Positions 5,448-53,962 of a stretch of DNA of 64,000 bases are shown here, piece by piece. Origin of the DNA: Raillietiella orientalis (Eukaryota). The translations under genes were made by a program, and so were the position numbers. The stretch spans positions 124,001 to 188,000 of the forward strand of contig JAYWIR010000092.1 of NCBI GenBank assembly GCA_036172245.1, given 5' to 3'. A model generated the notes under the pieces. The model was not told the DNA's origin, did not search any database, and saw only the letters and a program-made list of their open reading frames with translations. Positions within the stretch are counted from its first letter, which is position 1, and each line of letters opens with the position of its first letter.

Positions 5448-6215
5448 CTGGACGATCAGGGCCACGAGCACTCGGCACCCGCCCAAATCCGCGGCCTGCT
5501 GCGTAGATACTTCTCCTCCCTGTATGCCAGGGCACCTCCGGAGAGAAACGTCTCACGATTCCTTCTTCCGGAAGTCGCTCCAGCGATCATGGAGGAGGAG
5601 AAAAAGACCATCGACGAGCCTTTCACGATGGACGAGATTCTCTTGGCCATCGGAAAGCTCAAGAGACGCAAGGCTCTAAAGGAGAACGGCCTGCCAGCGG
5701 AGTTTTAAAAAACTTTCGCTACTGAGCTTACATCCATGGTACCGCAAGTCACCTTGCTGAGCTTACATCCATGGTACCGCAAGTCATTAGCGGCCTCCTT
5801 AGCAGCTTTGTGCTGCCTTTGCGGGATCGTCGCAGCCTGGAGCAAGGCTACGGGACGACAACGCGACAAGGGTGTCATCCAGCCAGCCATCCAGTTTCTG
5901 AAGAGGGCGTTCCGATGGCCCTACCGGGATACAGGAATACAAAAGAAGCTTGCCGGCATCTTGCAAAGGCTGCAACGGCACCACCAGCAACTGTGATCCC
6001 TTTCCTTACCCTCCTAAATTTTCTTTTATTTTTTTGTTTTGTTTTTTGTTTTTCTCCCTTCTCCCTCCTACCGTGGTGGACCGTACCGGTCTGCGAATCG
6101 GTGACCCTGCAGGCTCTGTGTTTCTTCGTGCGTGGCTGGAGCCATGTTCCAGCCACCGCACGTCTTTGTAAATGTTTATTAAACACTAAACGCCCCGGCG
6201 AAATCCGAGTGAAAA
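5448..6215 (+). mobile_element. Family D-like remnant: ORF2 linker piece, ORF2 C-terminus, 3'UTR and 3' terminus
   Basis: LDDQGHEHSAPAQIRGLLRRY matches 61642 onward. It then jumps to AALCCLCGIVAAWS...*, a T-rich UTR and the terminal hairpin at 6188-6215. Assigning the 3' piece to family D is inferred from contiguity. Confidence 0.8.
5722..5786 (+). repeat. Direct repeat, 2 x 30 bp (CTGAGCTTACATCCATGGTACCGCAAGTCA), at an internal deletion breakpoint
   Basis: Copies at 5722-5751 and 5757-5786. Confidence 0.9.
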
Positions 6216-7466
6216 TCGAACGCCTTGTGAAAGACGACTGCGACCACCAAGGCACCTGGCGTTTTCTGCTGCCTTCGGCGCCTGTTCTTCTTGCTTGTGG
6301 CAACGACTTTCGCTTCAGCCAGGCTTCGCTGCGCCACGACTTTTTTCAGCTGCAACCAGGTACGCGCGAAAAGGATGTTCGCCTCCATGGATCGTCCCGT
6401 AACCGCGTAGGTTTGTTCCCGGCTCACCACAGATTCCGCGATACTTCCTAACCGCGCGACCCACAGCTTGGAAAACAACTTGACGTCCGAGTTCACCAAG
6501 GTGATCGGACGCCAGTTGTTAAGTTGACGCAAGTCTCCGCCTTTCGGCAGGAGACGCACCTTCGCTGAGCGGAAGGAATCCGACACATTCCCGGATTCAC
6601 TCATCAGCGTCGCGAGTTTCAGCATCAAGGGAATGAGCTCCACTGCAAAGCACTGATAAAACTCTGCAGGGAGCCCATCCTCGCCTGGCGCCTTTCGTCT
6701 CTTCAGCCCAGCGATTGCGGACGAAAATTCATCCGCCGTGAAGGGCTCGTCGAGACGTTTGCGTTCCTCCTCGCCGACAACACGAGCATCCTGAGACAGG
6801 AGTATCTCAGAAAGAATATCCTCCGTCGGGGATTCCGCGTAGAGCGAGGAGTAGTAGCGTCTCACAATGCGGCGTACTCCTGCTGGGGCCGAACATTCCT
6901 GGCCCTTGTCGTCCAACAGGCATGCTGCTCCGGACTGCCAGACCTGGCGCTCGGCCCTCGCCTTGTACTCTGCGAGACGCCCGACATCGGCGCGTCTCGA
7001 AAACGTGCGGGCCTGCAGAAAGTCTCTACTGTTGGCCACCCCCTCTCCGAAACCGCGTGGAAGCCGGTGCAAGGGGAATTGGCAGCAGAACTCGCGGACA
7101 GATCTTTTGAGATCGTCCCAGTCCGCAAGTCCTTGAATGGCAAAGCCTCGGAGGTATCCACGTAGATGCTCCGCAGCCTCCGGTTGGCTACGCCTATCCG
7201 CCGGCATCCTCCAGTTTTGCAAGGAAGGCTCCTTGTCTGGCGGAAGGAGCTCAAACTACAACCTGTGATGGTCAGAAAGCTTAGTCAACAATCGTACTCT
7301 CCTACCCACACGCGCATGCAGGTTCTCATCGAGGAAAACGTGATCGAGCGATCCTTCCATTCCAGGTTCGCTGACAATCAAGTTGGCGGCGTGCACCAAC
7401 GCGCACATCTCGATGGGCAGGGCGCGCTCCCTGTGGTGGCTTCAATCGTCGAAGAGCAGACGGACG
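6216..7466 (-). mobile_element. Family C-like ORF2 fragment (end of EN to RT 'HKAFD')
   Basis: ORF 6179-7222 is close to ORF 50679-53123 (PEAAEHLR, DWDDLKRSVREFCC, NNWRPITLVNSDVK). Confidence 0.92.
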
Positions 7467-10373
7467 TTTTCATCCGGTCACGTCGGGGCGTTTATTAAAA
7501 AACACTGTACATTTGCGGTACTAGGTCCCGCTAAGGCAAATATTTCATGAAACCTGCCAGGAAGCCGGTTCTGAAGCCAGCTTGTCCTCCTCGGCAGCGG
7601 AGGGGATAGAAGGTAAAACAAAAAGAAAAATAGATGAAATTACAGAAAGGAACTATTTGGAGGTCCGGGAAGGGATCACAGCCCGCTGGAGGAGGGGACC
7701 ATCCTCTCTAGGATGCCCTCGAGGTCCCTCGTCGTAGCTCCCAGATGGGACCAGCCGATCGCGATTCGCAGTTAGCGACCCGCGTGTACGATGGGGTTCC
7801 TGTCGCTGCTCCCTCTTTTGGCTGCGCTCCAGGCGGCCACAATCCATCTGAGGGAGAAGAGCGCTGCCGGGGTTTAGGCTGGTGGCAGGGCGTCTCGCAC
7901 GAAGAGGAGTCTCACAACGTCTCTTGGGGTACTGCCTACCGGCATAGGGAGGATCCCAGGATGACGTTCCCACAAGAGCCGGAGGGCAGCGCAGTCCACT
8001 AGCAGATTTATGAGGGATTCCTTCTCCCGCACACTGCACAGTTCTGTCTCACGTTCCCCAACTTCCAGTGGTGGTGGCGCATGTTGCAGGGAAGAACCGA
8101 GTGCAACAATAACAGCGCCGTTTTCTGCCACTTGAGAGGAAGGGTGGAGAAGTCTTTGAACAACGGGGGCCACTTTAGGTCATCCGCCGGGATGCCAAGC
8201 AGCTCGCTTTATCTCCGTATTCCATGCGAGTGAACGCTTGAGGATGCGGCATCTGCCAGTTGCCTCATTGTCCACCCGCTTAGATCCTTCTCCTTGCCCG
8301 CTATCCGGCAAGAGACTTGCCATCTCGGCTTCCGGTTGTTATGAAGCGCCCTTCGTAGGAAGGGCAGCGCCGTGGCCAGTGGGATCGTCTCTGCCCAAGT
8401 GCTTCTGGCGGGACACACGATCATGTTCCGCAGCGTGCAGTGGGTGTAGATGCCGGTGCGCAGGCGGTTGTCGGATTCTCCACTGATGTCTTTTAACTTT
8501 GCCCACGTTCCAACTGTTTCTTCCAGCCATGCGCTGGAGTTGTCGGGGCTGCAGGCCATGCACCCGTTCTCCTTTGCCAGGGTGGCCATGCGTCCCAGGA
8601 GAAGTCCGCATTTTCTTATTTTCCGGCAGGGGCACAGAAGAAAAGACGCGAGTTCTTCAGTCCCGGACACACGTCTTGCGAGAAGGCGGGCTGGAACGCA
8701 CCAACGGAAGTTCAACATTTTCGCTGAGATGGCTAGTGTGCGTCACCGCATCTGTGTTTTCATTCGCTCCATCGTCAGGACGCTAAGACCTCCGTCCCGA
8801 CGTGGTGCGCGCAAATCCTTTAAAGGCACATGAGGCCCCCCGCCGCCCCACAGGGCGATGCGTAGGAGGTCCTTTGTTCTTTTTTTCAGTTCACGGGGTA
8901 CGGGGAAAACAAACAGCAGAGGGCGAAGGAGAGGAACCGCGAACGCGTTCCACACCGCCGCCCGCTCCGGCAAGTGAAGCTTGCCTTCCAGAAACGGGCC
9001 GATCGCTGACTCCACTTTTTGGAGACGACCTGACCAGGCTTCTGACTGGCAGAAGTCCCCCAACGGAACGCCGAGGTACTTTAAGTACCTCTATGTGGGG
9101 ATCCTCAAGCGGATCCAGTCAAGCCGTCCGACTCACGTCGCACCAACCACTACCTCCGATGACTTCGCTTTATTTACCCGTAGTCCAGTCCCGCGGCTTA
9201 GCAGACAGAAGAAATCCTCGACTACGGCTGCCGGGGCGGACGTGGGCAAAAGGAGCAGAAGATCATCGGCGTAAGCCGCTACGGCCGGCGTACCTGGACA
9301 CGAGCTTCGGTGGGCAGCCAATGTCACCCTGTATGCTCTCAGCACCAGTTCGAAATAGGTGCTAAAGAGCAGGGGAGTCAGGCTGTCGCCCTGTCAAATG
9401 CCGGGCCTCACCTCTACGCCGAACACGTGCTGTCCTCTGAAAAACAAGTTGATGAACGCATTGCGCCAGCAGGCGCCCAGGTAGACCGTTAAGGTGTCCG
9501 GGAAGCCCATGCGATCCAGGAGCTCCAGAAGGAGTTCTCGGTCTACGCAATCGAACGCTTTGTGCAGATCGACTGCGATCGCTAGAGCCCCCTTCCCTTA
9601 CCGGTCGTCCCTTACTTGCTGCGCTGGCGCTTCCAAGTCAGTTTTGTCGACATTCCGTTTTTTCTCCAAATTTTTCTCGCGTTGCACATGGAACCATGTG
9701 CTGGCGAAGAACAGGTTCACTTCCATGCTTCGCCCGGGAAAAGCGTACGTCTGTTCCATGCTGAAAAAGCTGTCAGCTACCTGCCGCAGTCCCGCAGCCC
9801 ACAGTCCAGCCAGCAGCTTGGCGTCCGTGTTCACAATCGTGAACGGACGCTAGTTGCATCATTTTCTGAGGTCTTCTCCCTTAGGAAAGAGCCTCACCCA
9901 GGCTGACCGAAACGAGGCGGGAACATCGCCTTCGTTTCGGATCAGCCGTGTCAATTGGAGCACCAGGGTGGTCAGCTCTGCAACGAAGCTCTGAAAGAAC
10001 TCCGCCGGCAGGCCGTCCTCCCCTGGCGCGTGACGCCTCCTGAGCCTTTTAATAGCGGTGGTGATTACACCGGTCGTATAAGGCTCGTCGAGGCTTTCTT
10101 TCTCCTCCTCCCTTATGGCCGGGGCTCCATCTGGGAGCAAGCGCTGGAAGGCGTCCCACTCCGCAGGTACCCTGGCGCAAAGAGAGCAGTAAAATCCACG
10201 CACGAGGCGACGTATCGATGCTCGGTCTGAGTATTCCTTGTCCAGGTCGTCCAGCACGCTGGGCGGCCCGGATTGTCATCCTTGACGCTCGCCCCAACTT
10301 TGTACTCGGCCAAGCGACGAATGTCAGGGGTCCTTGAGAAACGACGGACGTGCAAATACGCCCTTTTGTAACG
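7467..10373 (-). mobile_element. Family B-like LINE, ORF2 linker to 3' end, degenerate
   Basis: APGEDGLPAEFF, AYADDLLLLL, ERAAVWNAF, PRRDGGL. Terminal AATAAA-hairpin at 7467-7496. Confidence 0.92.
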
Positions 10374-12410
10374 GGAGGACGTGTTTTTCCGTTGCTCCGT
10401 CAACAAGTACCGGGAAGCGGTTTCTTCTTGGAAAGTGTGTGTTTTTTCACATCGTAAGTGTCCGATGGCATCTCTGCCAGAGAACACCACGATGAAGGTA
10501 GGCGTGGGGAAGGCTAGTCATCCTTCACAGCCTACTGGATCAGTAGCATTCGCCCCGGAATCATCCCCGTCAACGCCGAGGACGTGGAGCGCCATGGTGG
10601 CCGCGCCGAGCGCGGAAATCTTGGAGGAGCAAGCGGCTTACAAGGCCTCAGGATATAAACCATCTCTGGTTTATAAAGTAGGACCCCTGTTCCATGGTCG
10701 CATTGCCCGGGTCTTCAGTAAGGCACTACAGGACTTTCCTGTAAGAGAAGAGGATCTTGACGGCCTCTCCGAACTCAGCGGGGGGCAGCGCGTGGAGGTC
10801 GTCTGCAAAGACGTAGCCTTAGCACAGCGAATGATAAAGACCCCGCTGAATATGGATGGCCGAAAAATCCTACCGGTTAGCATGGACCGCTCCGTAGTGG
10901 TCCATCTAACCGGAATCACAAATCAGATGACGCGCTTGGTGGTCAATTCCGAGTTGATGAAATACGGAGAGGTACACGCGTTGTGGCCAAAGCCCACCAT
11001 CTTCGAAGGTTTTCATGACCATTTTGGAGGCCAGGCTGCAGCGCGTTTCACTGTCAATGAGGGTGCTGGGTTGCCCCAGAAACTGAAGGTCGCGAAGGAA
11101 TCCGTCCACCTCTGGTACGTGGGGAAACCCCGCTATTGTGGCTACTGCAATGCAGTAGGGCACTTGCGCAAGCGGTGCCCGAACATTGAGTGCCACTTGT
11201 GCGGGTTTAAGGAACACGTTCGTCGTGTGTGCCCTAAACACCCCACACAAGTGCCAACTGCTGCCAGAAAGGCGCAGGCCAAAAAAATGAACAAGCTCGA
11301 AAGACCTAAGCGAGAAACTGTCCGACCCCAGCCGCCAACTGCTCTTCCTCACACCCAGGCGTCGGAGAATGAAACAGCGGAAGACGCGGGAGTGAAGGAG
11401 GGATGGCAACTGGTAGAGACCAGGAAGGAGAAACAAGTGGTGAAAGAACCACTGAAGTAAACGGAGAAAAAGAACACGGCAGGAAAGAATAATAAAGCCG
11501 CGCCGCTGTCAAAAATCTCCGCGAGTGCTCGGTAGCACTGGATCGCGTAAGCGTTCCTGAGGCTGCCACCCGGGACAACGAGCCCTCACTCACCGTTTCT
11601 GCCGCGTCCGAGGTTCGCGACCACGAACCCTCTGTTTACACAGAGGGTGAGCCGCGCGACGCGCTCGCCGACGGCGAGGACGCCGCCTACGCGAAGGCGT
11701 GGGAGGAGCTAGCGGTTACGCTGGCCGAGCGTGAGAACCCATCACGCAAGGCCGTGCGCAGGCCGGCTCCGCCGAAGAAGGCCCCCTTAGGTGAGTTCGA
11801 CCTGGGGGCCGTAAGTACATCCTCCTCTTCGGAGGCACCCCCTTTGAAGACGGGACGTAAGTCCCAAAAACCGAGGAGGCGCCTCCCGTCCCCGAGCGAG
11901 GAGGAGAAGCCGGAAGCCGACGACAGCGTGGGAAACCCGGAGGTAGAATTCCCACGCACGCAAGCCGTCGAGCAGGTCACCCCCTTGGAGGAGGGTAAAC
12001 AGGCTGGTGAAGTCCTCCCTGTAGTCGCCAAACCTGAACAGCTCGCCTCCATGGAGGAGGGCGAACAGAGAAACGCGACTCCACCGGAGGGCAAACCGGC
12101 CGATGCGCCGTTAACCATGGAGGAAGGGACCAGGTGCCTTTAGCACCTGACCCTCCCCTTCCACCTTGCGTCCCGCCCCAACAGGTGGCGGACGCCGCAG
12201 AGCCAATTTCCCAGGAATAACACCTGTGATCGCCTGTCGCCGTCGGATCCGCGTGGCCAGTTGGAACGTCAAGGGTCTGCGCGACGACGGCAACAGACGA
12301 GATAAGGCCGACACCCTCCGTGACTTGGACCTGGCTTTGCTGCAGGAGATCGACGTGATCACCGCGGCAGACGTCCAGGAGATCGAGACGATCGCGGAGG
12401 GTCGGCTGTT
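10374..12410 (+). mobile_element. Family B LINE 5' half (5' end, ORF1, start of EN)
   Basis: GGAGGACGTGTTTTT 5' motif; ORF1; RVASWNVKG...LALLQEI endonuclease start. Confidence 0.93.
10465..12221 (+). pseudogene. Family B ORF1 (nucleic-acid-binding protein, two CCHC knuckles), internal stops
   Basis: CGYCNAVGHLRKRC and CHLCGFKEHVRRVC; stops at 11460 and 12143. Confidence 0.9.
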
Positions 12411-15198: not shown

Positions 15199-15200
15199 GA

Positions 15201-17203: not shown

Positions 17204-17300
17204 CGTCGGCCGCGCCCGAGCACTCTACGCCCTGGTCGTCGAGCAAACAAGCCGTTCCTGACCGCCAGACCTGGCGCTCGGCCTTGGCCTGGTACTCCGA
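17204..17300 (-). mobile_element. Host ORF2 remnant (SEYQAKAERQVWRSGTACLLDDQGVECSGAADV)
   Basis: Translation matches the family C ORF2 linker. Confidence 0.85.
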
Positions 17301-18611: not shown

Positions 18612-18705
18612 CACCAAATTCCCGGGGCAGGCGGTGCACAGGGAACTCTTCGCAGAACTCGTGGACCGAGGCCTTCATGCGGTCCCAGTCTTGGAGATTC
18701 CGGAG
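18612..18705 (-). mobile_element. Host ORF2 remnant ending at 'REFG-V'
   Basis: DWDRMKASVHEFCEEFPVHRLPREFG. Confidence 0.85.
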
Positions 18706-21670: not shown

Positions 21671-24600
21671 AGAAGAGAAACAGCGTGAGGGAAAGGTAAA
21701 CCTTGTTGAATTTATCAAATATGCGTTACCCTCCGTACACCCTAAGGATGCTCTCCATGATCCTGAAATTCTTCAATGGAAAACCTCAATTCATTTCCCG
21801 AACTCTCTCCATGAGTAATTTAGGATTCCATTGTTTATTGTGCTTTTAGTTTGGTTTAGTTTTTCCTTCTTCTTTAACATGGAACTGAACCACAGCGGAG
21901 TGCACAACGGTGTTGAGCAAGTGCTCTCTGCATCTTAGCCCTAAAGTCCTGTTCGATCAGAACGCAAAAAGCAATTTAGTTCACATGAAAAAGGTTTTCG
22001 AGTTTACTCTGAAATGTTATCTCTATTATTTGAAGAATACACTATCCAGGAAATCGAAGTGCCTTACTGAGCAGGAACCGGATGATATCGGCCGGCTCCT
22101 CTGGCAAACTGGCTGATCCGAAATGTCATGTCCTCTTTGAAGTCCTAGCTTTTTGTTCTGCTGAGCTACAACCGTCCGGTTGCTTGAGATACGATGCAAG
22201 TGAATTAAGTTGTTATCCTGCGCATCCTTTAAAGGTATTTCAATAGTTTTCTGTTTTATTTTAAGCCTTCCTTTCTTTTTGCCACATATTCTTGATGTCG
22301 TGTTCTGAGAAATATTAAGATTCCCAAACTTTCCAGAATAAGCGCTTCTTGTTAAGTCTCTTGGATATGCATCAGAGAGGTCTTGGTAGAATTCTCTTTG
22401 AACACTTTTGAGCGTCTATTGGGCCAAATATTTGACCGAATTGTCGAAAAAGGTATCTTAGATTAGGCGCGTCTGGAAGATGAACTTGCCTGATGTATAG
22501 GCGAGCTTTATTAGTCCCAGGCAAACTTTCCTTATGTTTGCGAGCAGATATCCACTGCCTGTAAGGAACGATAAAGAGAAAACTTCAATTGTCTATGTGA
22601 TACCTTTACTGCTTTGCCGGCAGTTCTTTTGGTGGTTTCCCGGCGTGTGCTACTTGTTCAGGCTAGTGAACAAGTTCCATATAGCATGTTTTATACGCTA
22701 TTCATTGAGTCCACAATCTATTATAGCAGCTTTTTTCTGACAGACTGCTATACACAACGGACATAAGTTGAACACATTGATTCCCGAGAGTTCTTCCAAG
22801 CGTCTTTACTCTTCTCAAAAGGTGCTTTTTCGCTAATCATCCCTTTGTTTATTTCCTTTGGTCCCACTCTTCTCCTCTGCTGTGGTACCGCCAGACACAC
22901 TTTTGTCGGTTTTTGGTATCGCTTGCTTGATTTCAAGAATAAAATGTTTGCCTGCCATGAATACCATTTTACGAGTGTGAACTGCAACGCCCGTCGATTT
23001 CTTGCAAAGGGAAGCAAAAAATTGCGTCACGTGCTCGCCGCAGCAGAAACCAGCCTGCTCTTGTTTCTCAAACACAAACGTCTGATCACGTGTTTGCTTA
23101 GCAGTCACGTATGCAGATTTTAACCTGAAGAACTCTGGATGAAGCAAAATACGCCTGCTTTCTTTCCATCGTCCGCGACAAATCTTCTGATGATGCTGCT
23201 GCAGATTCGGTGCTCCACTGAGACTTCAATAAAAAAGCCGAGCCCTGACGAATGCGTCTCGAGGATATAGCTGTTCAACCAAGGTGTCTCGGAAGTCCCA
23301 TCTTAATACAGGCAAAACTGAAATTCAAAAGACATGACCTTTGGACTGTTTGCAGCGCTACCATGATTTCTCAACGGAGTAATTTCCGGCTTCTTGAATA
23401 CAACGGAGTTGATCCTTGGCACATTTTTCTCCGTTTTAAACATACACAGGCAAATTCCTCGAATCTGTCAATGTGATTCCTGTTGACTTTTTCTGAAAGA
23501 CAACTGCCATGTGGCAATTGTTTTCCTCAGAGAGCTAGATTTGTAAATGTTTTATAATCCAATTGAAGGATTTAAAAATCTCGGAATAAATCTCTGCTAT
23601 TCGCTCATCATCCAGTTTTAGAGGAGCTTGTTTACATGGAAAACCAAAAATATGATGTGTTTCTTTTCCTCTGCGCCGATGGATTGGCGCCGCGTGAATC
23701 CCTACTTTGCTTCCAGAAAGAGTCGTCGTGGGCTACGAGTTTTTTTCCTCTTTCGTGCGCAACCTGCAAGGTGGTGAGGCAGTCCACCAAATCACGAGCA
23801 CACGGCTTGCTAGAGAGAAAAAAAAAAAAATCTTGCCTGAACGAGAGGCACGCTTGTGAATTTGCTGCAACAACAAACAAGCACTACAGCGAAGATGGAT
23901 CTCATCTGCAGGAGTGACGCAGAGCAGGTACTCTGCATCCAAGTGTCTGGAGCACTATGCAAAACCAGCATCGGTGTCAGGCCTCTTGCGCTGCCATTAG
24001 CAACAGGAAAGCCAAAGATTCCGCCTTCATCTCCAGAAGAGACATCGAAACACCCACAGTTTACTCTGTCGCAGTGGCTTATTTATCACCACGACAACGG
24101 CGCAGAACAAACGGAGCGCTGTGATTCTTATCAAGATGCAAATGGTGAGAACTGTCTTGTACGATAACACTCGTTTACAAGGATGCCAACAGGATTGCGG
24201 TGATCGTTTGGGAACATACGCGCGAGGCTTAAAGCAAACAAATGTGCCTAAACCGGTGCCCTGAAATATCTGGGCATATGGCATTTGAAACCGGAGGCGT
24301 GCCTTGACGCTATGCTTGTTTCTCTTGAAATTCGTCCTCTTCGTTATAATTAAAAGCTCCTGGGCGACTTATTCCGTTGCGGTGATCGGAAATCCATGAC
24401 TCATGGTCTAACTCTAATGTTTGCATTTGAAGCACGCTATAATTCCTGAGCCCTTTCTACACGATGAAGAACAGCTCCTGGTTTCTAACGTGAAACTGCC
24501 CTGATAGCAGAATGGTTGCCCCTTCGGCGCGCGTATGGAGAGGGAATAGGTAGCACAACTAATTCTATTTTCAGCTGATTTTTAACTGTCTGGAATTACA

Positions 24601-27600
24601 TCAAAAAGTGTTCTTCGGCTTCTGTCAATCTTCTTCCTCTCATTTTCATTTTAACAACCAGAATAACAAGATTTAATCGAGGTAATTTTTCTTTCCAGTG
24701 TCTGCACTGGTTATGCTCCGTGAACCAAACTTCAACATGAAACCTGACGTCAGCAATTATCTTAGAACTTATGTAATGTAATTTTTCAAGTGTGCGCCTC
24801 AGCACTCTGAATAATTTAGCTGTGATAGTTCCACCCTCTTGATTAATGAATTAAAGGAATTTGATTGATCCACGTACATGTGGGAGTAAATCATTTCTTA
24901 TGCTGATGTGGTTCTGTAGCAAGAAAATCTGCGATGGCTCTAGACATCTGCTAAAACATCTGCTGCAATATGAACCGGGACTTCTTGAGTCGATTCCAGA
25001 CGCGTGAGCTCTCATCTTCGTGTTGTGACGGTAGAACGCGGGAATAGAGTGTGGCTGTTGGTATGTCTGCAAATGACCTTTACCTTTCTCAAAAAATACT
25101 ACGTGTGTTCGTATGATATGAAGAGTGACTCACCTTGATCTTCCTAACATTCCTTTCATGATGCGCGTGAGTTCAGAAGGCTGGACATGCAAGATATGAA
25201 ACGTTTTGTAGTCTGCTGCTGTTGGTGTCTGCGTTGCTTGAAGCAACGGTGGCTACCCAAATTGGGCTACAAGGTCGACAATCCCCTGCTGATTTTAGAT
25301 TTAGCAATCTGACGGGAGGATGCTAATTGTACTTTCTAACTCCAAGAAGTGACATATCTGGTCAACACTGCATCGAGACGTGGGGTCCTGATTTTGATGA
25401 TCCTCGTACAACGAACTGCACAGTGGATGTGACGGTAGAGTTATATTGTACCTCCTGATTCTTTACATGATTCTCTTTCAGACTGTGGACAGAGTTTCTC
25501 GTGAAACGACGATTGCAATTGTGGGAGATCAAGAAAGCTGTTTGTGCCAAATTCAAGGAGGTCGCGGGTAAGACACTCTCTAATTTCAGAATTCGGGAAG
25601 CCTCGGCGACATATGCATTATGTTCTTGTATGCCTGTTGAGGGAGGCATGGACATGCGTTCGTGTAGTCTGGGAACCGTTATTTTATGAGGAATGCAAAA
25701 AGACTTGTAGCTAGTAAGCTGGGATCTGCTTTTGTCGGCTATGATCAGAACCGCAAAACAGAAATGCTGTTGCCAAAATTCCTTGGTTCTCACGAGGGAA
25801 CGAAAAGCATTGAAAAGGCAAAACCTTTTACTGAAAGATAATTTGCGACACAGTGGCACTTCATGAAAAAAATTTTCGGGACAGTTCATATATATAATTT
25901 GGTAGAAATTACTCCCATGGTAGGCATTCGAATAGCGCAGTCAACAGATTGATTATCGGATCAGGTTTGAGATAGCTTGCGTGATGATTGTTTCTAGAAA
26001 TCAGGGTTACCGACATTTCTAAAGGCTCCGCGGAAAACGAAAGCGATCCATTGATTGAACCTTAGTCTATGTCCGTTTTCTTCATTTTACATGTGTTTGC
26101 AATTGTTCTCATCTTATTCTTTCTTTAGCTTTTATATAATCATGTTTGTACATGTGCTCTATAAAGGAACTTATAGAAGCTCACCGGAGTTCATACATTT
26201 TGGAACCCCTTGAATCCAGTTGAACACCTCTAATCGAAATGTAAACACAGAAATTCAACAAATCCATAAGTAAAACAAAACTCTTGCTTACGTCAGAACC
26301 GATGTACTACAGAGACGTTGAAACGACCTCGAAATACGACTGGGTTCCGTTTCAATTTCTCCATCGTACATCGGTTCTATTTCTAGGTCCGACTGCACAT
26401 TTGGCTAACAGATGCAAAGAAAGAAACCGACGGCAATACTGTGCATGCAATGCAAACGTTGGGTGTGTCAAACACCTTTCATTCCGCTCATGTTCTGTTC
26501 CAGGAGCTTACCGTATGAAACAAAATTGCCCAAAACCACACCTTTTCGTTTGGGCTGCTCTTTTAACGAAGGCGGCTGGTGCGGCGTATTATTAGCGTTT
26601 TCCACTCCATCAGGCGAACAGAAACCTAAATAGAAGTGGAATATACGTTTGCGTCTCCATAACGTGCAATAAAGCATATATTGCCTAGATGTTCGTTTTT
26701 GATTCACACCATAAAGATGAATTCAAATCAGGTCACCTGAGAAGTTTGTTTAGAAAATAAAGCTTATTGTCTGTGTCATGACGTTCGATCCTGCTGCGTT
26801 ACATACATCTGCGAGCAGGAATTCGATAGAAACTAGCAATAGGCATGGAAACATCTCTGCGGCGGCACGGCAGAAACGTAGACGAAGAAAAACATAGATA
26901 GAGGCTTAAAAATGGGGAGTTTGGGCAAGGGACAGCCTTGTGTCGCAGAATATTATCTGCGATCCCTTAAACGTGATGGTGAGTTTCCGTTTCATCAATC
27001 CCAGTTGGAGGTATTTTGACGGTGCCAGATGAAGAGAACAGCGGCAGTGATGCCTTCAGTTTCGTTTTAATGTCCTCTACTCTTGCTGCAAACAGTCGCG
27101 GTCCTGACACGGAGGCAGCAAAGTGCCGCTAAGGATGCGGACAGCGCAAAGACATGGAGATGAACCGCAAAACGTATTCGCAGTTTCCGCAAATATTCGA
27201 AGGGACCTCTCCCGTTAATGCACACCTCAAGAGGCAATTGGGCCGGATAGTGATCTTGATGGTGAGGAAGATGTACCCACTCTCCACAGCTTGCAAGCAC
27301 ACCCGTGTCCAGTGATACCATCGGGGGTTGCACGGATGGCCTTAGTGCAGTAGCATGAGTGCCGACTTCTGTCACGTTAAAGAAAAGATGCTGGAATTCA
27401 TGTGCTCAGAGTTACTGCAGATCTCTCGCCGCAATTCTTTGTTGCACACTTTAACATATAAGTTCACGATTTCCACCATTTTTACTCGCAGAGTTGGTGT
27501 TCTAGAAGGTGCTTCAATTTCTTAAGTGTCTTCTTCTTTTGCGGTTTTCACAGTAACTACCCATCTTGTTGTATGGCGAATGTCCGTGTGCTGCTTAAGG

Positions 27601-29881
27601 GAGATTGGCTTGCTGGCGATTCAGAACTTGCACCCAACGCATCCTTTGCAGGAACTTCGAGGACCTTTCAAAGGATGGAGTTGCGTTACGCACGCAGAGG
27701 ATACATTGCTTCCGTTCACGTTTGGCTATCGGTTTATCGCTCACGTGTAAACGGCTTCCTGGAATCAGATCCTTCCGTTGATAGGGCAGCACGGGTTCTA
27801 TTCCTGCTGCACGTACTCAGTCGTTTGCGATCGCATTTAGCACATTTCTAAACTTCCTCGCCTCTCATTCTATCGCACTGTAGCATGGCCGTTTAAAGCT
27901 TTGTCTGTAGTCAGTGCCGTGAATAAGTCTTCAAGTTCTCCACATGAACCTTGTTTACTTTTCTCCGTCTGTAAACGTTCAGAAGCAGAAAATTTAGATC
28001 AACGGTGCAGAGAAGATTACCACGCCGCCACTGAAAGCGATACTGTATCCACAAGCTAAAAGTACTCTAGCGAAGGACACTTTAGCTATCAAATGCATAA
28101 TTTTACATAAAATTTACAAAAAGAAACAAAAGGTTGAGAAGTAATCCTTGGTCGTGGCCATATCTCAGAGAGAAGCAAAACGTTAAATAGTCGCTCCACG
28201 TTCTTTAAACATGAAGTTCACTCACGTTACTCGAGGGTCGGATAGGTCTGTTCGGATTCCGTTTAAAAGCATGGTGCTCCGTGAAATTCATTTTCAAAGA
28301 CATAAAGACATAAAAATCAACCACTTTCTCAAGTTCCACCGCCATGATCTTTCCTTCTTGCTGGAAAGATGCATTTTGTCTTCCAGGAATGCGCGGCAAT
28401 AGAGGAAACACGGAACGGTAACTGATTTGTTCGTTAGGGGTCGTGAAAAAGTGAAGGCTAAGGACGCGATGATCACACTGTGACCCTCGACGCATCATGC
28501 ATCAGCTTGAGTATGCTAGCAAGTTGATAAATTGAATTTCGCAGATTGAGCATATTTGCCATCTTGCGGATATTTCCAGAGAACATTTCGTTGAGTGGCT
28601 GGCGCCCCTGTCAGGTTATTCTCTTCTTGCCGCTTCCATAACCACTGCTGCCATGTTCCGCATGCAGCAAGTGGTCTGTGCGCACGCGTCTGGCAGAGTG
28701 CGTCACGGGAGAAAATCCGTTCATACAGGTCTGTAGGGCTCGTATAGGCGGATCCTGAGGGCCGTCAAAAAACTTTCCCAGAGAGAGATGTAGGCAATGG
28801 TTGCTAGGAAACCCAGTACATTGTGACGACGAAGAAAAGCGTCCGGCGAATTTTGCCAGAAATACAGTTCCTTTTCCTCGTGCCGACAGTAAAACAATTT
28901 TCGTAAGCATCTCGAGGAGATGTCATCGGAAACTACTATAGAGGTTCATCGGTGGAGCAGCCCTTCTACATGGTGCACACGGTGAACAAAGCTCTCAGCA
29001 ACATAGAAAACGAGAAATACTTTTAGAAATCCATGACCTAAAAAGCCCAAAAGTCTATTCCTGGTGATATATTCCAACTACTGTTTCTTATTGGTAATAT
29101 GTGGTAACACTTCAAAACGTGCTTTTCGTATGTGATCCATTCAGGTGATTGACATTTTAGAAAGCTTGTCCTCTTCTATTTGTTTCAACTATATAGAATT
29201 TTTGTAAAAGCAGAGGTTATTTCGATTACACAAATTGATGTTTCTTTGATTGTACCGTAAACTGCTGTTTCTGGCAAAGCATTTACTGAAGAGACGGCCT
29301 GGTGTCTTCCCTGAGAAGTAAATTGGCAGATGGCACATCGTTCATTGCTATTTTCACTTCTTGCTGGGAGGCCAGCATCCAAAACGGTACTGCACTCAAG
29401 AAAAGCGTGGAGAGACGAAAACTACGTGCATGGGTGCAAACTGTTTACTATGAAATCAGCGACGCCGTTGAACTTCGATTGCAGCTGCCGGCGTCCGAGG
29501 TCGTTGTTGCACGCTAACTCAAGCCCGCATATGAACTAACACGTTCTCCTGTACAGCCCGGTCCGATTATCTGGAATGTGCTTTCCCTCTGGTAGATATC
29601 GAGAAAAGCACCGAGGAACCGTAAAAGACAGGGAAAAGACAGCAGTTGCGTGAGGTTCCCCGAAACATGCCAAGAACAGTATTCTATTAGAAGAACACTG
29701 CGTGCAAAGTGTTCAAACCATCGGTTGAAAGCATCAGAATCAACTGGTTTATTTTAAATAAAGTTTCGTGCAAGACATGTTACAAAATTTATGGATGTTC
29801 TTTTCTAGTGGGACTCTCTCCACGCTGTTTTCAGAAGAATCTGTGCCTCTTGGATAATATTTCATTCATTTGGTATCTTGA
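21671..29881. other. Lower-GC island with no recognisable LINE sequence and no long ORF
   Basis: Visibly more AT-rich than its flanks. Longest ORF is 175 aa, with no domain I can recognise confidently. Confidence 0.75.
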
Positions 29882-30395
29882 TTTTCACTCGGATAATCCG
29901 GATCTTTTATTACTAAAATTGTATTATTAAGATTATTTCTTTATCTTCTTATTTATTTTATTATTATTCGAATTTCTCAATAAACTGTATTATGAAGTCT
30001 AATTCTATTGTGTTTTTTTTGAGTCAGAACCCACAATTCTCATTTGATTTGTTACACCTGTCCTTACCGAATTGCAGGCCACTGACATGCTCTAAATGAA
30101 AGAACTATTCAGCAAAACCAGAAACAAAAACACACGTTTATCTAAGTTTTAGAGGGTAAGGGAATGAAAGGAGGGATCAAGGTATGCCACGAGAAGGCCT
30201 GTGCATCCAGTTTTGGATGTGGATAGCTGCTGGCAAAAGTTTTCTCAACCGGTGCCATCGGGTAACCGCCTCCCTTGAGATGACTGCCCAATGAATTGCA
30301 ACTCGTCTTTGGTGTCCTATCCTCTGCGGAGTCCACTTCTCCAGGATTCTGCGTATTCAGCAAGGAACTGCCGCACACTCGGCTGCTGGCAGGAC
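29882..30395 (-). mobile_element. Very old G-like LINE 3' end; left edge of the right nest
   Basis: Reverse strand reads AVPC*IRRILEKW...IHWAVISREAVTRW (compare G: AVLCCVRGIVQRW...FHWTTISLETATRW). Terminus is AATAAAAGATCCGGATTATCCGAGTGAAAA at 29882-29911. Confidence 0.75.
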
Positions 30396-30734
30396 GTTGA
30401 GAATGAGAACACGACAGAAAATGTATTTTGGGTCTCACAGCGTATTGTTCAAAATCGACGAAATTCGTTCCGACATGAGGCGCAGAACGACACCTCTATT
30501 TGGAGGTCAGGGTTGGTTTTTCTTTCACAGCATCATGCACAATTGGCATTTACAATCCCAACTGTTCCTTTTGCAATCGGATGTGTTCTGTCATGTCTTC
30601 GCGAACTGGTGGTTGAGAAGGTTTTTTTTTGGAGTGCGTGTGGTGTATGGAACTGATGGTGCACCATTCCAGCGATGCATGAATACAGTGCAATTTAGAT
30701 CAGCAAGGAAGAAACGATTTGCCCTCCTCCAGAA

Positions 30735-32160
30735 TTGGAAGTGGGGTCATCCACCCCCATGGAATGCAAAGCACCCATCCCATCGGTATCTAGGGTAACT
30801 TCCACTGCGCAACATACTCCGCCACCGGCGATGTGCTGGAGCTCATTGGTTGCAGTTCCATCGCGGCAGAAATCGTCAAACACACAACCTAGAATGCCAG
30901 AGGCTACAAGCCGTCTCTGGTCCACGAGATAGGTAATTTCATTGATGATAACACTGCACGTTCGTATAAATGGGAACTTTTGAGGTTGAAATTGTGAGAG
31001 AAAACCCTTGAGAGTTTCTAGTCCATAGTAGAGGTTAGCGAGTCGAACTGATTTGCAAAGATGGAAGTCTGGCGCAGCGCTTACTAAAAACTCCCAATAC
31101 GATGCACGTTCGCAAGGTCTTCAATGTGTCGGAGGATCTTTCAGTTGTCGTCCATTTCACAGGAGTGGCAGCGCTCATGCGCCAAATTGAGGACCATGCG
31201 GATTTATCGTAACACGTTACCGTAATTGCGCTATCAAACAACGTCTACGTCTTATAGGCATAGACAGGGCTGTTTTGTGGATGACTGCAGCGCATGTCAC
31301 ACTGCCTCAGAATGGTAGATTGCCTCACAAGCTAAACATCCGCAACGAAAACGTCGATCTGTGGTACGTTTTCATATCTAATGATTGTGGGCAATGTAAC
31401 GCCACAGGTCATCTGCCAATACGGTGCACTAATATCCAATGCAACTTGTACAGCGAGAACAGAAACCATCGCACGATGTACCCTGAACTCGAAACTCCGC
31501 ATCGGCCCGCTGCCAAAAAGGCAATAATGAAAGGCATATGAAACAAAAAAATGCCGACAGTATAAAATGAGAAGGCTGGAACAAACCAGACGCCAGTTTC
31601 TAAAGCCTCACAAAAACATCAGAACGAAAATCCCCAAAGCAAGCTAGGTACCTCAGAACCGCTCGCTCCCGGCACCAGCCACATACACGGTAAACGCACT
31701 GCGTTCTTTGAAGGCCCGCGGCGAGACTGGTTGGCCAAAGCAGGTTGGTGGCGGACGCATCAGATAGTGGGAGACTTGAACGTCCGCCTTCTTTCTGGAG
31801 CGACCGACTTAAGAGCACAATTAGTCAATGTGTGCTGCGATGCACGCGCGCAACTTGTTGGCCGATGAAGGCGATGTGACAAACACAATCAACCACGTGT
31901 TCTTCGAAAACCACCTGTGCACGCGGGTGGTGACTCGAGGAGCACTCTCGTCGGAGCTGTCCGATCACCCTCGGCAAGTGCTCACCATCCATCAGCGCGA
32001 CAGAGGTCCACCCTCCGAAGCGTGGCGCCTGCCGGGAGACTGGTTGCCACTAGCAGGAGCGCGCGAACTTCTGCATGCATTCCTGCGCGGTTGCGACCTG
32101 CAAACTCTTGCTGACTGAGATAAAATAAAACGCTCCGTCCGAGATTTCTGAGACCAGTTT
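30735..32160 (+). mobile_element. Old degenerate LINE (ORF1 and EN remnants)
   Basis: GYKPSLV, VELICKD..LAQRLLKTP, LPHKLN...VDLWYV, CGQCNATGH; then SELSDH...AWRLPGDW. The 5' boundary is uncertain. Confidence 0.82.
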
Positions 32161-34595: not shown

Positions 34596-34605
34596 TTCGG
34601 AGTGA

Positions 34606-37032: not shown

Positions 37033-37225
37033 GCAAGCGTTCCAGGAGCTCCAGGAATAGCTCCTGGTCGACGCAATCAAAAGCTTAACAGTTGAAAATG
37101 TCAACAGCGTGGGAGCGAACCGGCGGAAGCGTTCGTCATTGAGACCGTGATCGATGACACCGCCTTCGAGCGTGCGGCGGAGAAGCTGGCTGCATCGTTA
37201 AAGCCAGACCCCTACAAAGCCAGTT
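37033..37225. mobile_element. Minus-strand RT scrap (KAFDCVDQELFLELLERL, 37033-37086) joined to a plus-strand family D ORF1 scrap (37087-37225)
   Basis: The second part aligns with 48520-48655 (IDD.AF.RAAE.LAASL.P). Confidence 0.8.
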
Positions 37226-42421: not shown

Positions 42422-45048
42422 CCCCAAATCCCGCAGGTAGGCGATGCTAAAGGAACCGGTCGCAGAACTGCTGGACCGACTGCTTGAAGCGGTCCCAGTC
42501 CTGAATCGTCCGCATCCTGAAGTTCCGTATGAACGCGCGGAGATGTTCCGCCGCGTCCGGGAACTTCAGTCAGTCCCCTGGCAGACGCCACGCTGACGAC
42601 GGGGGGCCCTTGTCGCGCGGATGCACTTCGAACACGAATCGGCCATGGTCCGACAGCAAGGACGGTAACTTGCCGCGCCTGCCCACGCGAGAGCATAGGT
42701 GCTAGTCAAGGTACACGTGATCGATGCTCCGTTCCATGTCCGTATCTCCGGCCAGCAAGTTGCACGTGTGCATTTGCGCGCACAACTCGTTGACGCGGTG
42801 GTTCAGTGTATCCGGCGCACCTGAAAGCAGGCGCAGGTTGAAGTCACCTGCGATCAGGTGCGCTTTGCGTACACCTGCTTCGATCAGCCAATCGCGTCCG
42901 AGGGCAAGGTAGAATTCTCTTCTTGCCTTCGCCCTCAAAGCGTTATTTCCGCTAGGAGCGTATAGGTTGGTGACGACCAGGTCGATAGAGTCGGACCAGC
43001 TGAGAGTCAGCTGACCGACGCGACCTGCGTCATCGAACCGAACGTCCTTTATTGCGGTCTCGATGGCTGGCCGAAGCAGGAAGGCGACACCGCTTGATAT
43101 CGCGGTGCCGCAACGCCACAACAGCCGCCCACCCGAGATCCGTTCGATCTCCCGGGCTTGATCTGCGGAGATCACGTGGATCTCCTGCAGCAGCACCAGG
43201 TCGAAGGATGCCAGGGTGGCGGTCACGTCACGCCACTTGCCGTCGTCGCTTAGCCCGTTCACGTTCCAACAGGCGATCAGAAGATGACGGCGAGAGGCGA
43301 TTCCCGGCATTATGGCTGGGAAAGTGGCGTCGCGGCACCTGCCGCGGGGCAGGTGTAGGAAAGGTCCATCGGTGCGAGGACCATCGTAACGAGGACGGAG
43401 GCCTCTTCAGGCGCCTGGGGTACCTGTTCGGCCTCCATCCTCACCATCCCCTCCGTGTCCGAGCGTGGAATTCTCTCGGGCGACGGGTCCCGGGAGTTTC
43501 CCACGCTCATGGCACCCTCGCTACCGGAAGCCATCTCTTCCCCTTCGTCGGGGGAGACGATCTTCCGGGGCATTGTGGAATTTCGTCCTGCCTTTTTGCG
43601 GGGTGCTGAGGACATGGATGCTGTGTTTCCGTCCTTCACCTCGGGGTCGGAAGTGGCCGACCCCTGAGGGGAAGCAGGACGCCTGACGGCCTTCTTGCCA
43701 GCCTTGGGAACGGCCGGCTGCAACGAGGCAACCAGTTCCTCCGCGGCGCGCTCCAAGGCGACGTCATCGAGCGTTGGCTCGATGACGGATGCCGCCGCCT
43801 CGTTTCCTTCCTTGTTGACTTTGCCAACGGAGGGTTGAGCAGGGGCAGCAGCAAGTTATTTAGCGCCGCATTCGTCGATGGCGGGAATACCCTCTACGAC
43901 GACGCACCAGCTTTTGGTTTTTTCGCGGCGCGGAGTGGTTTCGCTCCGTTTCGCCACGTTCTTTCCCTTCTTATGGGAGTTTTTCTTGGGTTCGACCTTC
44001 TGCCACCCTGGCTCTTGACCCTCGCTTTCGAACTTTTCGGCGTTTTTCGCCGGAGTCTCGGGGCTGGCCTTCGCCTTTGTGGCGCAGGTGACCTTCTAAG
44101 CAGCAGCACGAGTTGGCATCTTTTTTCTTTTTTTAGCCGCGCTCTTCCTTGCGTTTTTTGCGGACACGACGCGGTCTGTGTTTTGGGGGCACACCAGACG
44201 GGTGTGCCCCGCTTGTTTGCATTGCTGGCACTGCACGCTCGGACACGTCATTTTATGGTGACCAAAGCTGCTGCAGCAGCCGCAGAACTTGGGTGTCCCC
44301 ACGTACCCGACGTCAGTGGACTCACCGTTGACGGTGAGTTTGTGGCGAAACTCACACGCTTCGCGGACCGTTACTCGCGCTGCACCCAGGTTGCCAAGCA
44401 CCCCGTCGTAATCAACAAAAAACGTAGGCTCACCCCACAGCGCGCGGACAGTTGCGAATTTTTCTAATTCGTTCCGCACAGCCTCCTTCGTCATCCGGAA
44501 CGTGATACCGGTCAGGTGAATTATCACCGACCGGTCTTCAGTAATTGGGAGAAGCCTCCGGCTCCCCATAATTACAAGGGTCCGCAGAAGTCTTTGCACA
44601 AGAGTTGCCTCCTTGCAGATAACTTCCACAAATTGTCCCCCGCTTCTGACGGACATAGCCAGAAGCTCCTCTTTTTGTACGCCGAGAACGCGCATCGCCT
44701 GAAAGAAGGCGCGCGCGTTTTCGGGAGAATATAGACCGTCTACCTTATATAGAAGGGGTGGGTTATACCTCTCCTCCAGGTAAGCGCGCATCTTTGCCAT
44801 AGCCGCTGGCGTAGGTGCCGCAGCCACGGGGTTCCAAGCCCTGGGTAAGGCCGAGGGCGCATCCGTGTTGGCGGGAGCCTCCACTGATGCGGAAGCCCCC
44901 ACCTCCATCTCCTCCGGGGGCAATGAGGTCATCGCCCCTGGATCCTCACCGATTGTGGTATCAGGCATTGCTGCCTAATCCACCACCCACACCACGCACA
45001 AGCACCAACGGAAATAAAACTCAGGAGCAGCAAAAAGACACGTCCGCT
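42422..45048 (-). mobile_element. Family D-related LINE 5' half (ORF1 44968-43310, ORF2 EN from 43310)
   Basis: GGACGTGTCTTTTT 5' motif; CGCCSSFGHHKMTC and CQQCKQAGHTRLVC; ACWNVNG, LLQEIH, AGDFN, IDH. Cut at GFG-V. Confidence 0.92.
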
Positions 45049-45147
45049 CGACGCTCCCGAGTCTCTCGGATTGAAGCCTTTTTAAGGCCTTGGTCCGGGA
45101 GTTCTGCAAGCAGTTCCCCTTGAACCGCCTGCCTTCCGGATTCGGCG
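45049..45147 (+). mobile_element. Host ORF2 remnant ending at 'SGFG-V'
   Basis: VREFCKQFPLNRLPSGFG. Confidence 0.85.
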
Positions 45148-47254
45148 TTATAACCCGGATACGCACGGGGCGTTCATTTGTGAACTCTACATGCCTGGTA
45201 CGAGGCCCCATTACGGCCGTAAACACAGGACCTGTCGGGACACCGGGACGCAGCCCGGCGTGGCACTCCCCGTCAACGAAGGGGGATGGGGATAAGACAA
45301 TAAGAAAAATAAAAAAAGAAACAAACAAAAAGAAGTTGGAGGGCAGGGAAGGGATTACTGGTCACTGTGGGAAGGGCCCATCCGTCGAACAAAGCCCTCG
45401 AGGTCTGTCTTCATATTCCCTAGTTCGAGTCATCCGGCAGCTTTCCGTAAAAAGCGTTGGGCATACGGGATGACATCACTCGCCTGTGGATCCACTCCTT
45501 CGTAGTTGACGTCGCTCCATGCCGCCAGGATGCCACGGACGCAGCACAAGGCTGCGATGGCTGCGGCTGACTGCAGTGCGTCCTTCACGAAGAAGGGCCG
45601 AAGAACGTCTCTGGGGGTGCTGCCCGTAGGGAGCCCGAGGGTCGTGCCGAACAGTTCTTAAAGAGGTCGGAGGGCAGCACAATCCACAATAAGGTGGGGA
45701 AGCGACTCCCACTCCCCGCAACTGGCACACGCAGGATCCACAGCTCCCCTCGTCCAGTGAAAGCGGCGCGCGTTGCAGGGTAGACCGCAGTGCAATAGGA
45801 GCAGCGCCGACTCTTGCTACTTGAGGGGCAGGATCCTGGATTCTTTTATCACCAGGGGCCACTTCAGCTCATCCCTGAGGATGGCGAGCAGCTCGCCCCA
45901 CCTCACTAATTTACGCGGCTGGACGCTCGGAGTCATGGCGTTGGCCAGTTCTCCTGTTCTCCAGCCGCTAATCAACTTCTCGCGTCTCTCGATGCAGCAG
46001 GAGACTTGCCACCTTAGCGTCCGGCTGCTGTGAAGTGCCCTCCTCAGGAAAAGCATCGCTGTAGCTAGGCAGGTTGTCTCTGCCTACGTGCATCTTGCTG
46101 AACTCTCCAGGAGATTCCGCAGCGTGCAGCGGGCGTAGGGGCTGCATCGAAGACGATTCCACGTTTCGTGGCTACTCTGGTTTACCACTGCCCACGTTCC
46201 AATATTCTCCTCCAGCCAGGCAGGGGAGTTGGCGGGGCAGCAAACCATGCAGCTGTTCTCCTTGGCCAATGTTGCCTTGCGCCCGAGCAGTACGCCGCAT
46301 CTTCGAATCTTTCGGCCACGGCTCAGAAGAAAAGAAGCAAGTCCTTCGCACCGGGAAACACGGCTGGCCAATAGGCGGGCCGGAGTGCACCAAGGGGAGC
46401 TCCACATCTTCGCTGCGATGGCAAGGGTTCGCCATCGCAGCTGGATTTCCACGCTCTCCAGCGTCAGGATGCTGAGACCGCCGTCTCGACGCGAAGCGCA
46501 CAAGTCATTCAAAAAGACTCGGGGCCTCCCCTTGCCTCAAAGGGCTATGCGGAGGAGGTCCTTTGTCTTCTTCTTTGATTCCACGGTGGGAGAGCAAACA
46601 AAAAGCAAGGGGAGGAGGATGGGCGGCCGCGAAGGCGTTTCGAACCGCGGCCCGTTCGGGCAACTGAAACTTGTCTTCCAGAAACGGGCCGATCGCCGTC
46701 TCGACTTTTTGAAGGCAGCTGGACCACACTTACGCAGGGGAGTAGTCCCCCAACGGCACACCAAGGTACTTGAAGCACCCCGTCGTGAGGATCCCCAGAC
46801 GGACCCAGTCCTGGTGCCATGCTTACGCCGCACCTATTGGCACCACCGACGACATAGCCCTGTTCACCTGCAGTCCGGTCCCGCGGCTGAGCAGATCGAA
46901 GAATTCTCCGATTGCCTTTTCCGGGGTGGACATTGGCAACAAGAGCAGAAGATCGACGGCGTACGCTGCAACGGCGGGCGTGCTGGGGTACGAGCTCGGC
47001 AATGGGGCCAAAGTCACCCTGTACGCTCTCAGCACGAACTCAAAGTAGGTGCTAAAGAGCAAAGGGCTAAGGCTATCTCCCTGCCTTATGTCCCGTCGCA
47101 CCGGCACGCCATGCAACTTGTTACCGCTGAAAGTGACGGTATTCCTCACATTCCGCCAGCAAGAGCGCAGGTGGGAAATCAAGGAGGGTGGGAAGCCCAT
47201 CCGACACAGGAGCTCCAAGAGTAGTTCCTGGTCTACACAGTCGAACGCCTTGTG
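45148..47254 (-). mobile_element. B-related LINE, RT ('HKAFD') to 3' end; flanks the D element on its 5' side
   Basis: IRQGDSLSP, AYAVD; B-type 3'UTR; terminal hairpin at 45148-45178. Confidence 0.9.
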
Positions 47255-47348
47255 CGCTCTAGGGTGGACGTGTTTTCTTGGAGCTCCTCGTGCCAGGAAG
47301 TCTCCCCCAGTGCAAGCGTCGTGTGGTTCGGTTGTCGATCAGGCAGCG

Positions 47349-53792: not shown

Positions 53793-53962
53793 TGAACTTG
53801 CTCCGCGGCTCGAAGTATTGTGCGCTTGACAACTTAATCAGTTCATTGTGCTCGTGTGTGCCCGGAAAGGGGAAGTTTTCCAGAAGAAACAAAAAAAGAA
53901 GCGGCGAGGAGATCGCGGCAAAAGACCTGCAGTGGTCCCGTGCAGCAAGACCAGCTGCCAGG

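Follow-up and report, generated by a model that had tools for sequence, protein, structure and literature searches.

The known target-specific long interspersed nuclear elements (LINEs) use rRNA, small nuclear RNA and tRNA genes, microsatellites, telomeres and transposons of other classes (PMC4640811, PMC4494074). Transposons are entered by several LINEs of the Tx1 clade: Tx1L inserts into Tx1D (a piggyBac element), Tx1-Mar into Mariner-N4_AMi, Tx1-8_Crp and Tx1-4_AMi into retrotransposons with long terminal repeats (LTRs), and Tx1-9_AMi into Harbinger (PMC4494074). Hotspots of nested insertion are also known among human transposable elements (PMC2836564). Here we describe a LINE family of Raillietiella orientalis, named D, which inserts at the Lys-Ala-Phe-Asp (KAFD) codons of the reverse transcriptase (RT) genes of related LINEs. 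The sequence analyzed was a 64-kb stretch of contig JAYWIR010000092.1 (G000:C92:124001-188000; referred to as the window, in whose coordinates positions are given), from a genome assembly of 210 Mb in 491 contigs. The window is a pile of nested LINEs.

The 14-mer TCGAACGCCTTGTG is located immediately 5′ of a D 5′ end at 47241-47254 and immediately 3′ of a D 3′ end at 6216-6229, and in both places its minus strand translates into the H-K-A-F-D residues of LINE reverse transcriptases, in agreement with an earlier note on this DNA. The main D copy, which begins at 47255, closes beyond the window. Its 3′ end lies at window-equivalent 64424 and is followed by TCGAACGCCTTGTG, just as the earlier note had predicted, and then by the remaining 5′ half of the host RT gene. 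The copy is bounded by a perfect 14-bp target-site duplication. Measured against a natural full-length D copy in locus L093 (5570 nt), its two pieces, 47255-49188 and 60774-64424, correspond to D positions 1-1935 (96.9% identity) and 1921-5570 (95.4%), and its 3′ end diverges by 1.5–2.3% from the nearest ends sampled. The host halves flanking it represent one subfamily (88.7% and 88.6% identical to the host flanks in locus L170). The D copy ending at 6215 is older; it differs by 10% from the main copy and by 9–10% from all 88 ends sampled in the genome. Its right-flank host (B-like) is only 66% identical to that of the main copy (C-like); the two hosts do differ, as had been proposed. The same note had likened the two junctions to the halves of a single target-site duplication 41 kb apart. 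They belong instead to two separate insertions that differ in D age and host, and one rearranged insertion as the source of both is ruled out by the above values for D divergence and host identity.

To sample D 3′ ends, we used the exact 31-nt D terminus, which occurs 88 times in the genome, and inspected the flanks of all 88 occurrences; all targeting counts come from this one genome. A script assigned 60 ends to a KAFD host, 7 to tandem D, 3 to D-internal positions, 15 to other sequence and 3 to contig edges. Six ends were then moved to the on-site class by eye, namely two D-internal ends and one ‘other’ end, in which the flank or the left junction is a KAFD host, and the three contig-edge ends, where only site-type sequence is visible. 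In total, 73 of the 88 ends lie at the KAFD site and 15 off-site, and when near-identical duplicates (seven groups of duplicated junctions) are collapsed, 65 of 80 are on-site and 15 off-site. A separate, partly overlapping set of 3′ ends picked by BLAST gave 24 of 30 on-site. For the 5′ ends, a flank-free query listed 40 ends, 30 of which were returned as loci; all 30 are preceded by the site, 29 of them with the host RT in register. All on-site D copies are antisense to the host. The genome-wide enrichment at KAFD expected by the earlier note is therefore present at both element ends, and junctions at KAFD are not a matter of chance, because 73 of 88 ends across the genome lie there. Strict site patterns detected 94 filled and 763 empty sites, that is about 11% filled; these counts are exact matches and lower bounds, and the two patterns differ in their 3′ halves. 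That D inserts site-specifically is close to certain.

On the host sense strand, it is the Asp codon of KAFD that contains the insertion point. The 3′ end of D is fixed: it carries four A’s, behind AATAAA and a short hairpin, in 94 of 94 ends, which were gathered by a pattern stopping before the A’s. In 23 truncated copies the target-site duplication measures 14 or 15 bp in 16 cases, 13 bp in two and 16 bp in one, while four copies are at the script floor of 12 bp; one copy was mislocated. Tandem D copies also occur, with one duplication between them, stacked at the regenerated left duplication. When the first 12 bases of the left and right duplications were compared, mismatched pairs were found for 13 of 16 full-length and 9 of 23 truncated copies, and mismatched bases amounted to 22/192 vs. 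12/276, respectively (p=0.006). At position 5 of the duplication, 10 nt inside it, C (KAFD to KAVD) was found in 8 of 51 left but 0 of 52 right copies (p=0.003). The base at position 13 goes with the D leader variant (15/17 vs. 2/34). Full-length copies thus often have bases of the donor type in their left duplication, and D RNA probably starts inside the target, at least 10 nt within the donor duplication.

Initiators and downstream promoter elements (DPEs) have recognizable consensus sequences, and by rule the DPE begins at +28. Of 53 D 5′ junctions examined, 50 have an A at +1, and 50 have GGACG beginning at +28. Counted in this way, the predicted RNA start would fall two bases before the duplication, which agrees with the donor-type bases. 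Strict spacing and a G at +24 have been described for DPE-type promoters (PMC4180977), and G at +24 is present in D. The spacing between A and box could also be a footprint rather than a function, and we treat the promoter as a candidate. No ribozyme was found in an Rfam scan of the full-length D copy of L093, which returned one weak unrelated match (E=0.61). At one locus (L037; G000:C57:816364) 13 nt of the site remain at the 5′ end of a full-length D copy, and this end is joined to host RT sequence about 270 nt further on, which reflects either a host deletion or a junction formed with RNA-borne target sequence.

By its domains and ends, D classifies as an LINE of the apurinic/apyrimidinic endonuclease (APE) type (L1/Tx1 group) of about 5.57 kb. 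It shows target-site duplications and 5′ truncation and has no LTRs. In the second open reading frame (ORF2) the APE endonuclease is N-terminal and is followed by the RT and a C-terminal zinc region; Pfam Exo_endo_phos and RVT_1 score above the cut-off and zf-RVT below it (E=6.5e-4). The ORF1 protein (about 550 residues) contains two C-x2-C-x4-H-x4-C motifs, recognized by eye, and gave no Pfam match at E<=0.001. The best solved-structure matches of the endonuclease profile are to human L1-EN (E ~1e-17). Sequence-specific insertion into a multicopy target, a trait of the Tx1 clade, is present in D (73/88 ends). The R1-clade trait of an rDNA, telomeric repeat or microsatellite target is absent, the targets being LINE RT codons, and in place of the restriction-like endonuclease and the hepatitis delta virus (HDV)-like 5′ ribozyme of R2-type elements D has an APE endonuclease. 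Among 28 homologs found for D ORF2, one is 71% identical and the others 22–31%; one of them, at 27%, is auto-named ‘Transposon TX1’, and identity to the nearest named proteins is about 25%. The 71% homolog (P0001), a metagenome protein whose record lacks flanking sequence, has the same VDLRKAFDCVDQ motif, and the clade is present in at least one other record. A metagenome scan for D relatives gave seven distant loci (25–31% identity) plus one 28-residue stretch at 61%.

The endonuclease of the group is short. When a profile of seven of its endonuclease domains was aligned with human L1-EN, a 16-residue gap appeared at L1 residues ~185-201, and the distance from GDFN to SDH is 59–63 residues in six group members vs. 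77–101 in 11 homologs, about 20 residues shorter. Removal of the L1 βB6-βB5 hairpin (T192-S202) left ~10% nicking and no retrotransposition (PMC1950540). By this alignment the endonuclease of the group appears to lack the βB6-βB5 hairpin loop used in target reading.

We propose that target-primed reverse transcription places D, always antisense, at a single fixed position in the RT genes of related LINEs. The endonuclease would nick the host sense strand after TTCGA, and a second nick would follow about 14 nt away. The full-length RNA would begin in the left duplication of the donor, and the cDNA end would anneal to the 14-nt overhang and prime second-strand synthesis, so that bases of the donor type remain in the left duplication. 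Such a site would be useful in being multicopy, dispensable to the organism and alike across sister families through coding constraint. Targeting at KAFD with a 5′ copy of the target carried on the RNA is, in our judgment, very probable. Several points weigh against it. The choice of an exact 31-mer for the 88 ends favors one D subfamily. Without one tandem pair, mismatched bases fall to 16/180 vs. 12/276 (p=0.07 per base, p=0.02 per pair); left/right differences at positions 6, 9 and 12 are confounded by host composition, and a comparison of donor bases with the nearest intact host was noisy and uninformative (62/336 vs. 20/154, p=0.15). Gene conversion between junctions could also spread donor-type bases. 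Finally, an endonuclease that appears loop-less leaves the long-range specificity unaccounted for.

About one in six D copies is off-site, and these copies share only an S/TCGAR core. In 14 resolved off-site insertions the target has T in 13, C in 14, G in 14, A in 12 and R in 14 at positions +1 to +5, while at −1 there is G or C in 13 and at −4 there is G in 11; further out no clear signal is seen. These targets bear on the alternative that targeting is real but encoded in protein, the endonuclease or another ORF2 domain reading about 20 bp and RNA-target pairing playing no part. We consider this reading, in which the left-duplication variants stem from a slightly longer element 5′ end or from later gene conversion, quite possible, if less than probable. 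The off-site consensus upstream of the nick (−1 and −4) is not specifiable by an RNA 3′ flank, no KAFD-derived bases were carried to the 14 resolved insertions, and the Tx1L and R1Bm endonucleases are sequence-specific unaided (PMC1950540). Against it stand the shortened GDFN-SDH stretch of the group endonuclease, without the counterpart of L1 residues ~185-201, and the position-5 variant, located 10 nt inside the duplication.

A second alternative combines weak preference with selection: D would nick S/TCGAR cores of any kind, possibly for the most part within LINE nests in heterochromatin, and selection would remove the copies elsewhere, so that a hotspot seems to exist. It accommodates the 15 of 88 off-site copies with nothing but the core, and their lengths, since only 1 of 15 off-site copies reaches 1.5 kb vs. 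53 of 72 on-site copies (p=2e-6), as purging of long copies predicts. The shortness of off-site copies is compatible with a need for 5′ annealing and equally with selection against long dispersed copies. The core alone is insufficient for a hotspot, because the LINE nest of the window holds 114 core sites and 6 KAFD-type sites (19-fold), and still no more than 2 of the 15 off-site copies are found in LINE DNA. An insertion at any core site of a nest should do as little harm as one at KAFD, but of 67 distinct insertions inside LINEs 65 are at KAFD, all of them antisense. The KAFD codons of the distant family E also contain the TCGA core and are filled at 0 of 59 sites (p=0.003). On these grounds we regard weak preference with selection as improbable. 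In the window E is nested inside B inside D, and E may partly postdate D. With this reservation on the unfilled KAFD of E, D recognizes a nucleotide sequence common to its own clade and not a protein motif. Hosts of one type, in which AGC follows the Asp codon (K-A-F-D-S), account for 9 of the first 100 empty sites listed but for none of the 94 filled ones (p=0.003); such hosts are either resistant, the putative initiator A being removed, or younger than D. No signal of self-avoidance by D was seen: CGA-AAR-type sites number 6 among the 94 filled sites and 3 among the first 100 empty ones (p=0.32), and with 3 break-ends vs. 41 intact copies at its own site, D does not spare its own type.

The 60 host flanks fall into 14–21 lineages, depending on the threshold, with a median pairwise identity of 62.5%, and the nearest D neighbor has the same host lineage in 9 of 59 cases vs. 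17% expected; this independence of D relatedness from host lineage indicates repeated insertion and not a copied composite. Amplification of a few D-in-host composites by segmental duplication or recombination, to which the seven duplicated-junction groups (88 ends reduced to 80) and two similar D > B > E nests in the window would lend themselves, is very improbable and refuted for most copies by the at least 14 host lineages, by truncated copies with breakpoints and duplications of their own, and by window nests that differ in D age and host.

The earlier note had also argued that, by targeting codons of a conserved RT motif, D would have a site that hosts cannot easily lose. Site-specific antisense insertion at these codons in other LINE subfamilies is borne out; the inability of hosts to lose the site is unsupported, as the TCGA core arises from TTC-GAC and is removable by the synonymous TTT. 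No signal of host escape by TTT recoding was detected, with TTT-type sites accounting for 8 of 94 filled and 9 of the first 100 empty sites, and these equal shares show neither escape nor constraint. It is plausible that the site stays similar from family to family through constraint on the codons. The Asp that precedes the motif (D-L-x-K-A-F-D) is, we assume, catalytic.

D is one of a clade of sister LINEs. Several of these have a fixed site of their own in the ORFs of the group, those of D included. The GACGTG 5′ box and the hairpin 3′ end are common to the sister families, whose insertions occupy other fixed positions in these ORFs. Counts of B-type and H-type ends were made by eye. Of 93 B-type ends, 16 apparently represent another family and ~68 of the other 77 lie in the endonuclease, at its A-Q-E-I codons. 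Among 99 H-type ends, ~51 lie at the RT D-A-K-L codons, with 6 ambiguous and 42 elsewhere. The D copies of the sampled loci contain 110 internal break-ends, most often at DAKL (11), at an ORF1 site near position 1400 (10) and at AQEI (10, in two bins). Smaller sets map to the linker GFG site, the ORF1 ECSV site, the C-terminal HWTRG codons and, in sense, the GDFN codons. A tree built from 27 3′ regions, with B left out, gave a supported clade for each of the KAFD, DAKL and GFG classes.

Further observations concern these families. The antisense insertion of B into the A-Q-E-I codons of D, with a 15-bp duplication, recurs at about −6002 (L162). Family E (~25% identical in the endonuclease) is antisense at the same place of B ORF1 in both nests (53760-59700 and 1-~4500), which suggests a fourth tier of targeting, D > B > E. 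Another family has inserted in sense into D ORF1 near D position 1400 (from window position 37221 on, and in L091), and in L091 this yields an in-frame ORF1-ORF1 fusion of 1057 residues. The linker G-F-G codons show recurrent antisense junctions by another family at 42422/42423, 10374 and, outside the window, 67950. The 16 B-type matches set apart above appear to represent a family whose flank often ends in TCCAGT; one copy, at C14:630165, maps to the C-terminal H-W-T-R-G codons. A total of 1267 3′ ends, scattered through the genome, have the shared hairpin with a loop of 5 nt, each subfamily having its own fixed 4-nt tail and a short core; the first 100 of them, on large contigs, lie mostly outside fixed sites as judged by eye.

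A broader, tentative reading is that a guild of sister LINEs splits conserved codons into private sites, a loop-less endonuclease supplying a core of 5–7 bp and RNA-borne target bases the rest. The RNA would carry a 5′ copy of the duplication, transcribed from a promoter that only the correct site completes, and short 3′ read-through would extend into the target. If true, RNA-guided choice would be partly heritable via the flank, which would explain the ready rise of new sites and the truncated off-site copies.

The features of the window are listed in Table 1. The D scrap at ~37088-37220 shows 89% identity to a copy in L150 and 86% to one in L154, both of which have their 5′ ends at KAFD, and 78–79% identity to main D; its 3′ end was not found. 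It is indeed 5′-truncated and abuts TCAAAAGCTT of a minus-strand host, as the earlier note had read it, and belongs to a D sublineage, not to the main D. A fourth D-related end at KAFD lies just outside the window, near 68796. The element at 42423-44980 (minus strand) is a close sister of D (77% identity) with its 5′ end at another host site, near the L-Q-D-W-D codons after the endonuclease. The region 21700-31700 has lower GC (42–45%), no long ORF and only decayed LINE scraps, and no host gene was recognized in it.

Table 1. Features of the window, in window coordinates (TSD, target-site duplication).
Feature	Position	Strand	Remarks
Older D copy, 3′ end	5789..6215	+	Internally deleted, with D piece 5448-5760; AATAAA/hairpin/AAAA terminus; 89.7% to L093
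Right TSD of older D copy	6216..6229	+	TCGAACGCCTTGTG
B-like host LINE, 5′ half up to KAFD	6216..7429	-	Hosts older D copy
Host RT scrap ending at degenerate site	37034..37086	-	TCAAAAGCTT; precedes third D scrap
D-sublineage ORF1 scrap, 5′-truncated	37088..37220	+	Interrupted at 37220 by sense insertion of another family at recurrent ORF1 site
C-like host LINE, 3′ half from KAFD on	45092..47254	-	5′ half continues beyond window from 64425
Candidate split core promoter	47239..47270	+	Target CAGTC (A at 47239) and element GGACG exactly 27 nt downstream (+28 to +32)
Left 14-bp TSD of main D	47241..47254	+	Antisense of host H-K-A-F-D codons; identical right copy at 64425-64438 (G000:C92:188425-188438)
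Main D, 5′ part	47255..49188	+	12-nt leader, GGACGTG box 47266-47272, ORF1, start of ORF2 endonuclease; 96.9% to L093
Main D ORF1	ATG 47349 to stop 49010	+	Two CCHC knuckles, by eye; from translation
Family B LINE, antisense in D endonuclease region (A-Q-E-I codons)	49189..60773	-	15-bp duplication 49174-49188 / 60774-60788, one base different
Family E inside family B element	~53760-59700	+	Nested in B within main D
Main D, 3′ part (remaining ORF2: APE, RT, C-terminal zinc region)	60774..64000, on to 64424	+	95.4% to L093; Pfam domains from D-family ORF2 copies

Each on-site D insertion splits the RT gene of a relative. Competition between transposons can in this way be counted in one genome, with ~11% of sites filled and reciprocal hits on D. 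Related families with different sites, together with a natural, apparently loop-less endonuclease, make the gain or change of specificity in APE LINEs directly testable, and if RNA flanks contribute, there would be a bearing on retargetable LINE-based gene insertion. A literature search, with Repbase, subscription papers and supplements outside its scope, gave no report of a LINE targeting the coding motifs of sister LINEs, nor of reciprocal targeting.

Several described systems share parts of this behavior. Zepp of Coccomyxa resembles D in forming nested clusters of LINEs (PMC3446292). Zepp, a centromeric LINE, is described with one cluster per chromosome, while D nests occur on many contigs alongside dispersed copies, and the extracts of that paper describe no cross-family site at the nucleotide level. 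Zepp is also listed with an (A)n tail (PMC3747384), whereas D has a fixed 4-A end. In R2 with upstream ribozyme cleavage, the target-derived 5′ bases of the RNA are proposed to anneal and give uniform 5′ junctions (PMC3774820), as we propose for D; R2 differs in its restriction-like endonuclease, rDNA target and HDV-like ribozyme.

The R1 element of Drosophila is closer. Like D it is an APE element with a fixed bottom-strand site, a 14-bp duplication and tandem arrays at the duplication, and it has off-site copies with 4–9 bp of target identity (PMC2718515). In R1 of the melanogaster group the RNA carries target sequence from upstream, which is proposed to prime the second strand, while R1 of the ancestral type, which has the 14-bp duplication, is inferred to carry little if any 5′ target sequence (PMC2718515); D appears to combine the duplication and the target sequence. 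The target of R1 is 28S rDNA, and it is only in its junction behavior that D resembles it.

With the Tx1 clade D shares the use of another transposon as the target of an APE-type LINE (PMC4494074). For SINEU of the Tx1 system, tandem copies around the target-site duplication and many opposite-direction insertions are described, and transcription from the flank is proposed (PMC4494074). The likeness is one of behavior, the nearest named proteins being ~25% identical. In contrast to Tx1, the targets of D are protein-coding codons of LINEs of the same clade, in at least 14 lineages and D-type copies included, and targeting among D and its sister families is reciprocal. The hairpin loop present in Tx1L-EN also appears, by alignment, to be absent from the D group. 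D works like the R1 and Tx1-type target-specific APE LINEs; what is new is the coding sequence of its own clade as the target.

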